Shown here: one piece after another, positions 15,639-25,290 of the stretch
Position numbering within the stretch: the first letter of the stretch is position 1
Layout: each line of letters starts with the position of its first letter
Source: Phalacrocorax carbo
Taxonomy: Eukaryota
Length of the DNA stretch: 25,358 nucleotides
Direction: 5' to 3'
Assembly: GCF_963921805.1 (NCBI RefSeq)
Contig: NC_087541.1
Span: 672,482 to 697,839, forward strand
Translations under genes and position numbers: made by a program
Notes under the pieces: model-generated
Databases searched by the model: none
Seen by the model: the letters and a program-made list of their open reading frames with translations, nothing else
What the model was told of the DNA's origin: nothing

Positions 15639-15758
15639 ATGCCCTGGGGACGCCCGCGGGGCCCCCCCGGGGCCGGGCTCTTCCTGCAGGGGGACCCCGA
15701 GCGGCTCTTCGGGGACCTGCGCGAGATCGGCCACGGCAGCTTCGGCGCCGTCTACTTC
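15639..15758 (+). CDS. TAOK2: TAOK2 coding exon 1: start codon in gccgccATGc Kozak context, [40 protein letters not shown], kinase subdomain I (Gly loop)
   Basis: ATG at 15639; translation matches the TAO kinase N-terminus ([22 protein letters not shown] in human); phase-0 donor GTGAGT at 15759. Confidence 0.88.
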
Positions 15759-15764
15759 GTGAGT

Positions 15765-17290
15765 GCCCCACAAGTGCCCCCCCGCGCCCCACGGGTGCCC
15801 CCACGCACACCCCCGAGCCCCACAAGTGCCCCCACAAACACCCCGTGCCCCACGGGGGCCCCCCCGCGCCCCACAAGTGCCCACCACACACACCATGTGC
15901 CCCACAGAGGCCCACCCGTGCCCCACAAGTGCCCCCACAAACACCCCGTGCCCCACGGGGGCCCCCCCGCGCCCCACAAGTGCCCCCACACACACCCCCG
16001 GGTGCCCCCCTGCTCCCCACAAGTGCCCTCACAAACACCCGGTGCCCCCCTGCTCCCCACAAGTGCCCCCACAAACACCCCGTGCCCCACGGGGGCCCCC
16101 CCGCGCCCCACAAGTGCCCGCCACACACACCATGTGCCCCACGGGGGCCCACCCGTGCCCCACAAGTGCCCCCACACACACCCCCGGGTGCCCCCCTGCT
16201 CCCCACAAGTGCCCCCACACACACCCCCGTGCCCCCCGGATGCCCCCCTGCGCCCCACAAGTGCCCCACACACACACCCCGCGCCCCACGGGGGCCCCCC
16301 CCACGGCCCCCCCCATGCCCCCACACACACCCCGTGCCCCACGGGTGCCCCCCCGTGCCCCCACTCACACCCCCGCGCCCCACGGGTGCCCCCCACACAC
16401 ACCCCGCGCCCCACGGGTGCCCCCACATGGGTGCCTCATAGGTGCCCCCCTGCGCCCCATGAGTGCCCCTCCGCGCCCCATGAGTGTCCCCACACCCCCC
16501 TGAGCCCCACAAGTGCCCCCACAAACACCCCGTGCCCCATGGGGGCCCCCCCGCGCCCCACAAGTGCCCCCACACACACCCCCGGGTGCCCCCCTGCTCC
16601 CCACAAGTGCCCCCACAAACACCCGGTGCCCCCCTGCTCCCCACAAGTGCCCCCACAAACACCCCGTGCCCCACGGGGGCCCCCCCGCGCCCCACAAGTG
16701 CCCCCACACACACCCCCGGGTGCCCCCCTGCTCCCCACAAGTGCCCCCACAAACACCCGGTGCCCCCCTGCTCCCCACAAGTGCCCCCACAAACACCCCG
16801 TGCCCCCCGGATGCCCCCCTGCGCCCCACAAGTGCCCCCCACACACACCCCGCGCCCCACGGGGGCCCCCCCACGGCCCCCCCCATGCCCCCACACACAC
16901 TCCGTGCCCCACGGGTGCCCCCCCCCCACCCCCCACAAGTGCCCCCCCACACACCCCACACCTCACGGGTGCCCCTCCCGCGCCCCACGGGTGCCCCCCC
17001 GTGCCCCCACTCACACCCCCGCGCCCCACGGGTGCCCCCACACACCCCGCGTCCCACAAGTGCCCCCACATGGGTGCCTCATAGGTGCCCCCCCGCGCCC
17101 CATGAGTGCCCCACACCCCCCCACACACCCCCGTGTCCCACGGGTGCCCCCCCCACACACACCCCGTGCCCCACAGGTGCCCCCACACACACTCTGCGCC
17201 CCACGGGTGCCCTCAAACACACCCCCGTGCCCCACAAGTGCCCCCTACACACCCCCCGCGCCCCCCAAGTGCCCCCCGCGCCCCCCGTCT
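15765..17290. repeat. about 50-bp C-rich minisatellite (CCCCACAAGTGCCCCCACAAACACCCCGTGCCCCACGGGGGCCCCCCCGCG) filling TAOK2 intron 1
   Basis: visible periodicity. Confidence 0.85.
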
Positions 17291-17310
17291 GTCCGTCCCT
17301 CCCCCCGCAG

Positions 17311-17382
17311 GCGCGGGACAGGCGGACGAGCGAGGTGGTGGCCATCAAGAAGATGTGCTACGGCGGGAAGCAGTCCAATGAG
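17311..17382 (+). CDS. TAOK2: TAOK2 exon 2: ARDRRTSEVVAIKKMCYGGKQSNE (VAIK catalytic lysine)
   Basis: polypyrimidine tract plus CAG acceptor ending at 17310; GTGGGA donor at 17383; in phase with exon 1; matches ARDVRNSEVVAIKKMSYSGKQSNE. Confidence 0.9.
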
Positions 17383-17384
17383 GT

Positions 17385-17935
17385 GGGAGGCCCCGCCCCC
17401 GGGTGGGGAGGCCCCGCCCCTTCCCCTCCCGGGTGGGGAGGCCCCGCCCCTTCCCCTCCCGGGTGGGGAGGCCCCGCCCCTTCCCCTCCCGGGTGGGGAG
17501 GCCCCGCCCCTTCCCCTCCCGGGTGGGGAGGCCCCGCCCCTTGCCCTCCCGGGTGGGGAGGCCCCGCCCCCAGAGAGGCAGGCCCCGCCCCCTTTGCCCC
17601 CCTCCAGGGTGGGGAGGCCCTGCTCCCCTTTCCCCTGATGGGAGACCCCGCCCCCAGAGAGGCAGGCCACGCCCCCCTTTTCCCCTGGGTGGGGAGGTCA
17701 CGCCCCCTCCCCCCTGGGTGCAGAGACCCCGCCCCCAGAGAGGAAGGCCCCGCCCCCTTTGCCCCCCTCCTGGGTGCGGAGACCCCGCCCCCCTTTTCCC
17801 CCGGGTGCGTAGGCCACGCCCCCCGGGTGCAGAGACCCCGCCCCCAGAGAGGGAGGCCCCGCCCCCTTTGCCCCCTCCTGGGTGGGGAGGCCCCGCCCCA
17901 CGCCGGCCCCGCCCCACGCCGGCCCCGCCCCACAG
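17385..17935. repeat. 30-bp repeat CCGGGTGGGGAGGCCCCGCCCCTTCCCCTC, about 17 copies, each with a consensus Sp1 GC box; fills TAOK2 intron 2
   Basis: visible periodicity; GGCCCCGCCCC in every unit. Confidence 0.85.
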
Positions 17936-18037
17936 AAGTGGCAGGACATCGTGAAGGAGGTGCAGCTGCTGCAGCGCCTGCGTCACCCCAACACCATCGA
18001 GTTCAAGGGCTGTTACCTGCGCGGCCACACGGCCTGG
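17936..18037 (+). CDS. TAOK2: TAOK2 exon 3: [34 protein letters not shown]
   Basis: acceptor CACAG ending at 17935; donor GTGAGC at 18038; phase 0; LRHPNTI and GCYLR..HTAW match TAOK2. Confidence 0.9.
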
Positions 18038-18059
18038 GTGAGCCCCCCACGTGTGGGGC

Positions 18060-23427: not shown

Positions 23428-23526
23428 GTAACGCCCCTCCCCCACCCGCCCCCGCCCCCCGCCGGGGCCCCTCCCCCGCGCCCCCTCCCCCAACGCCGCC
23501 CCCCTGCCCCTGCCCCTCCCCCACAG

Positions 23527-23706
23527 CACCCCTTCCTGCTCCGCCCGCGCCCCCCCGGCGTCGTCGCCCGCCTCCTGCGCCGCGCCCGCGCCGCCGCCCC
23601 TCCCCCACGCCGCCGCGGGCTGGGGGGGCTGCTCCGCGGGCCCGATCCTGGCGGCGGCGACGATGACGACGACGACGAGGAGGATGATGACGACGACGAG
23701 GAGGAG
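23527..23706 (+). CDS. TAOK2: TAOK2 exon 10: HPFLLRPRPPGVVARLLRRARAAAPPPRRRGLGGLLRGPDPGGGDDDDDDEEDDDDDEEE (post-kinase segment plus acidic tract)
   Basis: acceptor CCACAG ending at 23526; donor GAG|GTGACG at 23707; aligns positionally with HRFVLRERPPTVIMDLIQRTK...EAPEEEEE, but the central part is strongly diverged. Confidence 0.7.
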
Positions 23707-23759
23707 GTGACGAAGGCTCCTGCCCTGCGGGGGGGTTTGGGGGGGGGGCGTTTAGGGTA

Positions 23760-24610
23760 CCGTGGGGCGGCTCCCAGGGGTCTCGGGGGTGTCCCTGGGG
23801 GTCCCTGTCACCTCCCTGGGGGTCCCTGGGGGTCCCTGTCCCCTCCTGGGGGTCCCTGGGGGTCCCTGTCACCTCCCTGGGGGTCCCTGGGGGTCCCTGG
23901 GGGTCCCTGTCCCCTCCCTGGGGGTCCCTGGGGGTCCCTGTCCCCTCCCGGGGGGTCCCTGGGGTCCCTGTCACCTCCCTGGGGGTCCCTGGGGGTCCCT
24001 GTCCCCTCCCTGGGGGGTCCCTGGGGGTCCCTGTCACCTCTCTGGGGGTCCCTGGGGGTCCCTGTCCCCTCCCACGGGGTCCCTGGGGGTCCCTGTCACC
24101 TCCCTGGGGGTCCCTGGGGGTCCCTGGGGGTCCCTGTCCCCTCCCTGGGGGGTCCCTGGGGGTCCCTGTCCCCTCCCTGGGGGTCCCTGGGGGTCCCTGT
24201 CACCTCCCGGGGGGTCCCTGGGGGTCCCTGTCACCTCCCTGGGGGTCCCTGGGGGTCCCTGGGGGTCCCTGTCCCCTCCCTGGGGGGTCCCTGGGGGTCC
24301 CTGTCCCCTCCCGGGGGGTCCCTGGGGGTCCCTGTCCCCTCCCACGGGGTCCCTGGGGGTCCCTGTCCCCTCCCTGGGGGGTCCCTGGGGGTCCCTGGGG
24401 GTCCCTGTCCCCTCCCTGGGGGGTCCCTGGGGGTCCCTGGGGGTCCCTGTCCCCTCCCTGGGGGGTCCCTGGGGGTCCCTGGGGGTCCCTGTCCCCTCCC
24501 TGGGGGTCCCTGTCCCCTCCCTGGGGGTCCCTGGGGGTCCCTGTCACCTCCCGGGGGGTCCCTGGGGGTCCCTGTCCCCTCCCTGGGGGGTCCCTGGGGG
24601 TCCCTGTCAC
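23760..24610. repeat. about 30-bp G-rich repeat (GGGGGTCCCTGGGGGTCCCTGTCCCCTCCCTG), about 28 copies, in TAOK2 intron 10
   Basis: visible periodicity. Confidence 0.85.
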
Positions 24611-24679
24611 CCCCTGGAGCTCTGGGGGATCCCCGTGTCCCCCCCCGTGACCCCCCTGACCCCCCCCCCCCACTGGCAG

Positions 24680-24871
24680 GAGGCGGAGCCGTCGGGCAGC
24701 ACCGAGCGCAGCCATTGGCCGCCCAGCGCGTCCGTCAGCGCCTCCAGCAGCGGCACCAGCCTGGGCGACGCCTCCGAGGAGGAGGAGGAGGGGCGGGGGG
24801 AGGGGGAGGAAGGCCCCGAGACCCCCCCGCTGCAGGACGGGGAGACCCTGGGCGCCCCCCACGGCCCCGAC
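24680..24871 (+). CDS. TAOK2: TAOK2 exon 11: EAEPSGSTERSHWPPSASVSASSSGTSLGDASEEEEEGRGEGEEGPETPPLQDGETLGAPHGPD (Ser-rich/acidic linker)
   Basis: acceptor GGCAG ending at 24679; donor GAC|GTGAGC at 24872; aligns with human AEPYMHRAG..SMSISASSQSSSVNSLADASDNEEEE..EGPEAREM. Confidence 0.8.
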
Positions 24872-25161
24872 GTGAGCTGGGGGGGGAGGGGAGGGGGGAG
24901 GGGCACCCTGGGGGGGGGAGGGGCGGGTTGGGGGGGGCGGGGCACCCCGGGGGGGGATGGGGGGGGAGGGGCACTGGGAGGGGTTGGGGGGACATGGGGG
25001 GGGGGGGGAGGGGGTGGCACCGCAAGGGGGGGTGGGGGGATGCGGGGGGGGGGATGGGGGGCTCGGCGCCGGCCTATCAGCATCGGGGATGTTGGTGGCG
25101 CAGCTCCGCCCCCCGCGGGGCGGGGCCTGACCCACACACCCCCCATTTCTTCCCCCCGCAG

Positions 25162-25290
25162 CCCCCCGACGGCCTCGGCGCCCCCCCGGCCCCGCCCCCG
25201 CCCCTCCCCCCGCTGGAGGAGGGCCTGAGGGCGGAGCTCGCCCAGCTCCGCCCCTGCCCCGCCCCCGAGAGCCCGCCCCAGGCCGACGAG
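25162..25290 (+). CDS. TAOK2: tentative TAOK2 exon 12: PPDGLGAPPAPPPPLPPLEEGLRAELAQLRPCPAPESPPQADE
   Basis: good acceptor (CCCCCCGCAG ending at 25161) and donor (GAG|GTGGGA at 25291); open frame in phase with exon 11; only weak Pro-rich similarity to the TAOK2 linker. Confidence 0.45.

Follow-up and report, generated by a model that had tools for sequence, protein, structure and literature searches.

We analysed a stretch of 25,358 nucleotides (nt) from the genome of Phalacrocorax carbo (assembly GCF_963921805.1, contig NC_087541.1, positions 672,482 to 697,839 of the forward strand). It is called the window below, and all P. carbo coordinates are positions within it. HIRIP3 and PAGR1 lie in its left part. 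Comparison of its sequence with that of other species indicates that its right part very probably holds the 5' part of the single-copy avian TAOK2, from the ATG to coding exon 12 (440 codons). TAOK2 encodes a STE20-group mitogen-activated protein kinase kinase kinase (MAP3K), and the locus would belong to the counterpart of 16p11.2, in a GC-rich and repeat-dense region that resembles a dot microchromosome.

The TAOK2 exon chain and its product

The kinase gene was modelled by reading positions 15400-25358 and placing the exon borders on splice dinucleotides. A sequence-only reading of the window, made without database searches, had proposed a TAOK2 orthologue in twelve exons of 46-192 nt between 15639 and 25290. 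The start, end, number and sizes of these coding exons, as well as the peptide fragments quoted from them, were all reproduced:

15639..15758, plus strand: coding exon 1, with the ATG and the Gly-rich loop; donor GTGAGT; intron position between F and A as in gull, pigeon and lizard
17311..17382, plus strand: exon 2, ARDRRTSEVVAIKK...KQSNE, with the catalytic Lys motif VAIKK; junction conserved
17936..18037, plus strand: exon 3, KWQDIVKEV..., which carries the TAOK2-type motif LRHPNT
18851..18896, plus strand: exon 4, LVMEYCLGSASDLLE; 46 nt; AAG acceptor; junction conserved
19007..19103, plus strand: exon 5, modelled from its splice borders
21027..21140, plus strand: exon 6, with HRD, DFG and the activation loop, and the TAOK2-specific V (RDVKAGN) and G (KLGDFG)
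21241..21332, plus strand: exon 7, with GKADVW (A for V), common to bird TAOK2 proteins only
21422..21515, plus strand: exon 8, modelled from its splice borders
23346..23427, plus strand: exon 9, SELFRQFVASCLQKPPPQRPPSRLLLQ; the kinase domain (Pkinase residues 27-277) ends here
23527..23706, plus strand: exon 10, HPFLLRPRPPGVV..., followed by a degenerate stretch past the kinase domain and by a run of Asp/Glu; alignable with exon 10 of gull and pigeon
24680..24871, plus strand: exon 11, EAEPSGSTERSHWPPSASVSASSSGTSLGDASEEEEE...; Ser-rich and acidic, with ERSHWPPSASVSASS in common with pigeon TAO2
25162..25290, plus strand: exon 12, PPDGLGAPP...; its 3' end is the least certain border of the model

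All 11 introns are of the GT...AG type (22 of 22 splice dinucleotides intact), and the mutual consistency of their phases, also claimed by the earlier reading, was borne out on the re-derived borders. Joined together, the exons give 1320 nt or 440 codons, free of stops and frameshifts, with a GC content of 0.74 overall and 0.95 at third codon positions (GC3). At the end of exon 12, GTGGGAGG (25291) is no more than a plausible donor, and the frame remains open up to the end of the window. The window ends at 25358, just past exon 12 and ahead of the coiled-coil half of the gene, and the model thus extends from the kinase into the linker (exons 10-12). The length of this exon is lizard-like (43 versus 44 codons), and it starts at the matching intron position in gull and lizard. 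Prokaryotic-style open reading frames across the repeats were dismissed as minisatellite translation, and an Rfam scan of the entire window returned zero matches.

The product of these exons matched the Pfam domain Pkinase with 208.7 bits over residues 27-277. In a phmmer search against the PDB, rat TAO2 came first with 527.6 bits (E=2.5e-157), ahead of human TAO3 with 483.8 bits; the next family, STK24, reached only 226.8 bits, far below the TAO kinases. All catalytic motifs were located (Gly loop, VAIK Lys, HRD, DFG, and APE), along with DVWSLG and an intact activation-loop Ser. Together, the rat TAO2 match and the Pkinase score exclude a chance chain of exons. The predicted product is a kinase of the TAO subfamily within the STE20 group, and we infer that the gene would be transcribed, spliced as predicted, and would encode an active kinase.

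TAOK2 orthology and the neighbouring genes

A comparison with TAOK1, TAOK2, and TAOK3 proteins, which the sequence-only reading had proposed as a check, was run; it returned the TAOK2 profile as the best one and a gull protein as the top match. Within a collection of 5.8 billion proteins, this best match was the 'TAO2-like' protein of the gull Larus michahellis (80%, and 82% across the kinase domain), followed by bird TAO2 proteins from pigeon, parrot, honeyguide, and zebra finch at 72-76%. No protein of that collection exceeded about 82% in the kinase domain, and the TAOK2 protein of P. carbo itself was not found there. The search of the collection also revealed that birds possess separate and highly conserved TAOK1 and TAOK3. 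Profiles derived from conservative sequences scored 531.6 bits for TAOK2, 521.2 bits for TAOK1, and 507.7 bits for TAOK3.

Individual residues provided further insights into the identity of the kinase. A strict set of diagnostic columns that included fish gave too few informative sites, and the analysis was rerun on amniotes only. The TAOK2-type residues V (RDVKAGN), G (KLGDFG), A173, and E248 were present, as was LRHPNT, and the P. carbo product displayed none of the four TAOK1-specific and none of the seven TAOK3-specific residues. Among the diagnostic motifs named by the sequence-only reading, RDVKAGN, KLGDFG, and LRHPNT stood, while QSNE lost its value since bird TAOK1 has it too. In GKADVW, every other TAO kinase has a V where bird TAOK2 has an A, including the conservative proteins of gull and kiwi. 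Exon 11 displays EEEAEP, the same as in gull (EEEETEP in mammals); the tail has SLGDAS followed by an acidic run, compared with SLADASDDDD in lizard; and exon 12 starts with PPDGLGAPP, compared with PPDGLYAPP in gull and GHDNLYDDP in lizard. A local BLASTP search with residues 297-440 yielded a single match, pigeon TAO2 (E=0.005). When residues 215-440 were used, low-complexity word matches dominated and no close relative was returned; the two matches of longest coverage look like invertebrate Tao.

Two proteins of the duck Anas platyrhynchos annotated as 'TAO3-like' (P0263/P0265) displayed KLGDFG, RDVKAAN, and GRADVW. They appear to be divergent TAOK2, and the automatic name is probably wrong.

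Once the proteins had been mapped onto their own loci, intron positions 1-11 turned out to be identical to those of gull and lizard TAOK2, and positions 1-10 to those of pigeon. Shared intron positions would support homology rather than a choice among paralogues, and their agreement with gull and lizard indicates that the exon chain is the ancestral amniote one.

The genes and intergenic block upstream of the kinase gene are as follows:

4850-5017, 6740-6839 and 6976-7113, plus strand: last three exons of HIRIP3, with the stop TGA at 7111-7113
7261-7445 (exon 3), 7555-7637 (exon 2) and about 9311-9669 (exon 1), minus strand: PAGR1, with Pfam PAXIP1_C at 140 bits
12300..13480, no strand assigned: CpG-rich non-repetitive block of GC 0.75-0.79 between PAGR1 and TAOK2

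Earlier Glu/Lys-rich exons of HIRIP3 lie at about 900-2340, and the joined HIRIP3 peptide matched Pfam CHZ with 30.5 bits (cut-off 23.3). The closest matches of PAGR1 were found in penguin (94%), stork (91%), and albatross (84%), with turtles at 75-78%; this ranking places the species among neoavian water birds. We take HIRIP3, PAGR1, TAOK2, and CDIPT to be genes of human 16p11.2, where HIRIP3 presumably lies tail-to-tail downstream of TAOK2. The Nicobar pigeon (Caloenas nicobarica, TAOK2 locus L002) displays the divergent pair of PAGR1 (minus strand) and TAOK2 (plus strand) as here, followed by a CDP-alcohol phosphatidyltransferase gene on the plus strand, probably CDIPT. In the Oriental stork (Ciconia boyciana, PAGR1-HIRIP3 locus L003), the PAGR1-HIRIP3 block is collinear with positions 3-12069 of the window; TAOK2 exons were not found within 10 kb of PAGR1 at that locus. 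Both orthologous blocks are located on small chromosomes, of 775 kb in pigeon and 912 kb in stork.

These data bear on whether the kinase might instead be a paralogue of the TAOK1 or TAOK3 type, or have arisen in birds as a duplicate of one of these two. Some of our results do speak against TAOK2: the profile scores are only 10-24 bits apart, with a small margin of about 10 bits over TAOK1, and identity of the kinase domain to bird TAOK1 (0.78) is near that to lizard TAOK2 (0.80). Likewise, in a neighbour-joining tree of 32 TAO kinases based on BLOSUM62 distances, the P. carbo protein groups with the divergent, fast bird TAO2 proteins, and this long-branched clade falls outside all three vertebrate TAOK clades. 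In the same tree, the conservative gull TAO2 sits beside lizard and mammal TAOK2. We read the basal placing of the bird clade as long-branch attraction and used the tree as evidence neither way. A paralogue is at odds with the lack of any TAOK1- or TAOK3-specific residue and the presence of the TAOK2-specific V, G, A, and LRHPNT; with the flanking HIRIP3 and PAGR1, and the same PAGR1/TAOK2 pair in pigeon; with the separate and highly conserved TAOK1 and TAOK3 of birds; and with the gull protein, which bridges the P. carbo copy to lizard and mammal TAOK2. We consider this alternative largely refuted and very improbable. Based on synteny, the separate bird TAOK1 and TAOK3, and the TAOK2-type residues, we regard TAOK2 orthology as secure, with synteny as its decisive support. 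The earlier choice of TAOK2 over TAOK1 and TAOK3 agrees with the profile scores, residues, and synteny alike.

Apparent frameshifts were detected in both neighbouring genes. In the last exon of HIRIP3 (7040-7113), the incoming frame (…RTRRRNPWNPQTPPGEKIGGSPPPSPPS) meets a stop at 7091, and the conserved C-terminus VDWSRLRGVISSDGESE, with its stop, is read in the +1 frame; the switch takes place within C10/C8 runs at about 7040-7062. In PAGR1 exon 1 (minus strand), the segment opened by the ATG at 9669 is conserved with penguin and stork, and the conserved segment after it is read in another frame; this apparent shift by a single nucleotide falls in GC-rich sequence at 9546-9627. These changes would represent either residual assembly errors or genes in decay.

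The sequence around PAGR1 is itself rich in repeats. Its intron 1 holds a 12-nt minisatellite (CGTGAGGTAAAT, 7860-9218, about 115 copies), which stands alone in the window in being comparatively rich in AT (GC of about 0.46); the arrays elsewhere are GC-rich. A second array, located 5' of PAGR1 (9304-11186), consists of units of about 21/41/123/300 nt (GGCCACCAAATTGAGCCC...). A recognisable counterpart occupies the same place in the stork (L003 8010-10374, 63-66% identity). This array is older than the divergence of the two species, unlike the species-specific intron arrays. Between PAGR1 and TAOK2, a non-repetitive element of about 200 nt (11867-12069), adjoining a 55-nt repeat of 4.5 copies (11636-11878), is 76.6% identical to stork L003 6454-6673 and may be a promoter, an untranslated region (UTR), or a regulatory element. 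The CpG-rich block at 12300..13480 is a candidate for a shared or TAOK2 promoter, or for the 5' UTR of the latter.

Up to 7 kb, the stork locus L003 consists of 60-100% tandem repeat per kb. An annotated gene of 881 residues at L003 1-7336 gave no Pfam hit and lies mostly inside 51-, 226-, and 274-nt arrays; we rejected it as a probably spurious translation of repeats.

Repeat-filled introns and sequence stuttering

Repeats identified by Tandem Repeats Finder (TRF) cover 69.5% of the entire window and 0% of TAOK2 exons 1-8, 11, and 12. The TAOK2 introns have a GC content of 0.71-0.86 and long runs of C or G. Their lengths, TRF coverage, and arrays (to which no strand is assigned) are as follows:

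Intron 1: 1552 nt, coverage 0.97; minisatellite at 15779..17286, units of about 31/52/134 nt, CCCCACAAGTGCCCCCACACACACCCCGTG..., beginning about 20 nt past the donor
Intron 2: 553 nt, coverage 0.85; arrays at 17398..17933, a 30-nt unit x5.8 (99% identity), followed by units of 109 nt and 16 nt
Intron 3: 813 nt, coverage 0.49; minisatellite at 18370..18698, 42 nt x7.9, G-rich on the plus strand
Intron 4: 110 nt; small or low-complexity repeats flagged by TRF
Intron 5: 1923 nt, coverage 0.88; arrays at 19228..21020, a 52-nt array (about 19228-20200), then a C-rich array of the CCCCTCCCCCACTGACCCC type (about 20250-21020)
Intron 6: 100 nt, repeat-free
Intron 7: 89 nt, repeat-free
Intron 8: 1830 nt, coverage 0.98; arrays at 21520..23325, up to about 22020 of the CCCCCCAAACC type, and thereafter CCCAGACCCCTCCCCCACCC, a unit of 20 nt, x67
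Intron 9: 99 nt; small or low-complexity repeats flagged by TRF
Intron 10: 973 nt, coverage 0.87; array at 23846..24617, 63/135-nt units, GGGGGTCCCTGGGGGTCCCTGTCCCCTCCCT
Intron 11: 290 nt, coverage 0.58

The sequence-only reading had described an alternation of tiny, repeat-free introns with introns of 1-2 kb, each filled by a minisatellite family of its own. Of introns 4, 6, 7, and 9, all of which do measure 89-110 nt, just the two introns 6 and 7 are strictly free of repeats. Lengths of 1-2 kb apply to introns 1, 5, and 8 only; introns 2, 3, 10, and 11 measure 0.3-1 kb. The arrays are mostly private to one intron, except that introns 5 and 8 contain two arrays each, and that the C-rich second arrays of these introns (5b and 8b) are alike at about 70% identity.

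The same introns look very different in other species. Lizard TAOK2 introns consist of 0-3% tandem repeat and have a GC content of about 0.45. The long TAOK2 introns of gull and pigeon consist of 83-99% tandem repeat, yet other introns are inflated in these birds. The P. carbo introns 1 and 2 (1552 and 553 nt) correspond to introns of 72-114 nt in gull and pigeon (72-78 nt for intron 1 and 79-114 nt for intron 2). At intron 8, the 1830 nt of P. carbo stand against 147 nt (gull) and 667 nt (pigeon); intron 9 measures 99 nt here and 2824 nt in pigeon; and intron 10 reaches 3951 nt in gull versus 973 nt in P. carbo. The absence of arrays in lizard, and the inflation of different introns in each bird, show that the expansions were independent, recent, and local.

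Arrays of such kind are notoriously difficult to assemble, and part of the intron lengths could be unreal, the product of collapsed, expanded, or mis-joined arrays. The 1-nt frameshifts in C/G runs of HIRIP3 (about 7040-7062) and PAGR1 exon 1 (9546-9627) could likewise be consensus errors, and a study of chicken dot chromosomes cautioned that part of the local variation may be technical (PMC12954441). Nevertheless, the gull and pigeon assemblies independently display filled introns in the TAOK2 orthologue, and the same study verified the filling of chicken introns with raw nanopore reads. Moreover, the order of the exons, their phases, and all junctions are coherent in P. carbo, and the arrays are bounded by unique sequence adjacent to the exons. 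Hence, assembly artefacts appear quite unlikely as the source of the long introns.

The long introns of P. carbo TAOK2 resemble a pattern described by Hron et al. 2026 (PMC12954441) under the term sequence stuttering, in which the introns of chicken dot-chromosome genes are filled by locally amplified units. In that work, orthologous introns vary among species, and some arrays copy the end of an exon together with its splice site. The study also put the share of ohnologs lost on dot chromosomes at 29%. The idea of GC-rich 'hidden' avian genes stems from Hron et al. 2015 (PMC4539667), and the view that the architecture seen here is that of GC-rich, hard-to-assemble avian genes is in line with both papers. 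In the part of the supplementary list of Lovell et al. 2014 available to us, HIRIP3 and INO80E carry a gene identifier from one bird only, P. humilis, and TAOK2 was not found. TAOK2, HIRIP3, and PAGR1 are not named in PMC12954441 or in those of its supplements that were available to us, and a literature search returned no paper linking TAOK2 to birds or to missing genes.

We screened for exon stuttering of the type described in chicken. Among the TAOK2 exons, no proximal copies above the low-complexity background were detected, the matches being limited to poly-GAG and C runs. In HIRIP3, a 38-nt segment at the junction 4992-5029 (GAGCTGCGGGCCCTCGGCCTCACCGGTGCGGGGCGGGG, comprising the last 26 exon nt, the GT donor, and 10 intron bases) has identical copies at 5054, 5191, and 5264, and a further copy at 5687 that differs by one base. 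The exon end and its donor thus occur five times, four of them as decoy splice donors within the intron (4992-5724). Intron 5 of pigeon TAOK2 holds a single acceptor-side copy, a partial one that comprises the 5' end of exon 6 and its upstream context (L002 12709-12750; …CCCCACACACACGTCAAGGCCGGGAACATCCTCCTGA…, VKAGNILL); the genuine exon 6 (12861-12976) follows some 140 nt further downstream.

The GC skew flips at TAOK2 exon 1 (13483-17286), from about +0.37 in the upstream arrays at 13.5-15.5 kb, which are G-rich on the plus strand, to about -0.5 in the C-rich intron 1. An inverted kinship of the upstream arrays and the intron 1 array, both of which contain a CACTTGTGGGGC / GCCCCACAAGTG core in opposite orientation, was considered and dropped; the match is weak (54 bits, 70%), and we make no claim.

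Evolutionary rate and comparison with known systems

We calculated ratios of nonsynonymous to synonymous substitution rates (dN/dS) by the NG86 method and compared rates by the Tajima relative-rate test with lizard as the outgroup. For the kinase domain, dN/dS was 0.16 versus gull and 0.31 versus pigeon, which points to a domain that is under purifying but relaxed selection. This domain of TAOK2 is 93-94% identical across fish, lizard, and mammal. Identity amounts to 0.94 for the pairs lizard-mammal and gull-lizard, and to 0.99 for TAOK1 between bird and chimp. P. carbo has 0.80 to lizard and about the same to mammal TAOK2, the other divergent birds have 0.69-0.73, and birds have 0.69-0.82 among themselves, which indicates that most changes are lineage-specific.

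The relative-rate test assigned 49 unique amino-acid changes to the P. carbo lineage versus 2 to gull (p=5e-11). Nucleotide changes along the P. carbo lineage were strongly skewed, with 63 from AT to GC versus 5 from GC to AT. Among the amino-acid changes, 30 were toward Gly, Ala, Arg, or Pro (GARP) and 0 away from them, and the GARP content of the kinase domain is 0.34 versus 0.22 in lizard. This bias probably reflects GC-biased gene conversion, which is expected to produce such a pattern. TAOK2 has retained its ancestral sequence in gull and kiwi, and has diverged strongly, in a different way each time, in parrot, pigeon, honeyguide, finch, duck, and P. carbo, so the acceleration seems to have happened several times in birds. 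It is possible, and we suggest it tentatively, that TAOK2 was released from constraint in several of these lineages (P. carbo, pigeon, parrot, honeyguide, finch, and duck, not gull or kiwi) and rewritten independently by GC-biased substitution. If true, avian TAOK2 would form a natural series between a constrained kinase and gene loss on dot chromosomes, with a function that is altered or vanishing in some birds.

Carried further, the acceleration could mean that this TAOK2 orthologue is losing, or has lost, its ancestral function, with relaxed constraint, an eroded regulatory post-kinase region, and an intact exon chain that is transient, perhaps ahead of the gene loss that is frequent on dot chromosomes. 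Several observations lean that way and weaken the case for a regular TAOK2. The post-kinase motif DAVRELDNLQYRKMKKILFQE, conserved in all TAOKs including that of gull, is here AAAPPPRRRGLGGLLRGPDPG and unrecognisable, and exon 12 lacks HFATIRTASLV, which is conserved at the end of lizard exon 12. The tail, which is poorly alignable, has a dN/dS of about 1.1-1.3. Added to these are the 49 versus 2 lineage-specific changes, the identity to lizard of 0.80 where the gull-lizard and lizard-mammal values are 0.94 and that of TAOK1 is 0.99, the apparent frameshifts of HIRIP3 and PAGR1, which may themselves be signs of decay, and the ohnolog loss on dot chromosomes (PMC12954441).

Even so, loss of function is unlikely in our view. 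The 440 codons in 12 exons contain no stop or frameshift and retain 22 of 22 splice dinucleotides, the catalytic motifs and the Ser of the activation loop are all preserved, and the kinase dN/dS of 0.16-0.31 is well under 1. GC-biased gene conversion would yield such substitutions without loss of function, and equally divergent TAOK2 persists in pigeon, parrot, honeyguide, finch, and duck.

Based on these findings, the P. carbo gene is very probably an avian TAOK2, and it fully retains the ancestral amniote exon-intron structure. Several of its introns have grown through the tandem amplification of short intronic sequence, a local process specific to the lineage, and the remaining ones have stayed near a minimal length of about 90-110 nt. 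Replication slippage or unequal exchange may have generated the repeats, in what would be a region of high recombination. The coding sequence of the twelve exons is intact, the kinase domain is still under purifying selection, and strongly AT-to-GC-biased substitution on this lineage has shifted the protein toward Gly, Ala, Arg, and Pro.

These findings have implications for annotation, as they provide a hand-curated model of the 5' part of TAOK2 and of the adjacent HIRIP3 and PAGR1, in a region that automatic pipelines handle poorly. They also add an example of stuttering from outside chicken, in which the same 11 introns were compared in four species (none filled in lizard, and different ones inflated in each of three birds), a comparison that supports a recent, independent, and local origin of the arrays. 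Of greater interest, as a by-product, is the sharp contrast of rates within one orthologous kinase domain, with repeated, lineage-specific acceleration of a domain that is otherwise extremely conserved. TAOK2 is a neurodevelopmental gene of 16p11.2 in mammals. Its erosion in some birds could be of interest to those who study how kinases are constrained or how genes are lost from dot chromosomes.

Descriptions of the gene family, of TAOK2 models in birds, and of this type of intron already exist, and the P. carbo gene is apparently a further, unannotated member from another bird lineage. All catalytic motifs of the rat TAO2 kinase-domain structures (1U5Q/1U5R/2GCD) and of vertebrate TAOK2/PSK1 are present here too. 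The order of domains is also that of vertebrate TAOK2: an N-terminal STE20-type kinase precedes two acidic stretches that have a Ser-rich one between them. The conserved post-kinase segment and the exon 12 motif of vertebrate TAOK2 are, in contrast, unrecognisable in the P. carbo copy. The gene order differs from human 16p11.2 as well, with HIRIP3 (plus strand) and PAGR1 (minus strand) upstream of TAOK2 (plus strand) in P. carbo.

The annotated avian TAOK2 genes of gull (P0001), Pezoporus (P0015), the pigeon Caloenas nicobarica (P0018), Indicator (P0037), Taeniopygia (P0050), and Apteryx (P0259) resemble the P. carbo copy in exon structure, in the bird-specific motif GKADVW or GRADVW, and in long introns filled by repeats. 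Exon 11 contains ERSHWPPSASVSASS as does that of pigeon, and exon 12 starts with PPDGL as does that of gull. Finally, P. carbo TAOK2 resembles the stuttering genes of Hron et al. 2026 in the size of the repeat units (tens to hundreds of bases), in arrays that lie between intact exons, in extreme GC content with long G/C runs, and in orthologous introns that are unlike between species. The published systematic work on such genes concerns chicken, and P. carbo represents another bird lineage.

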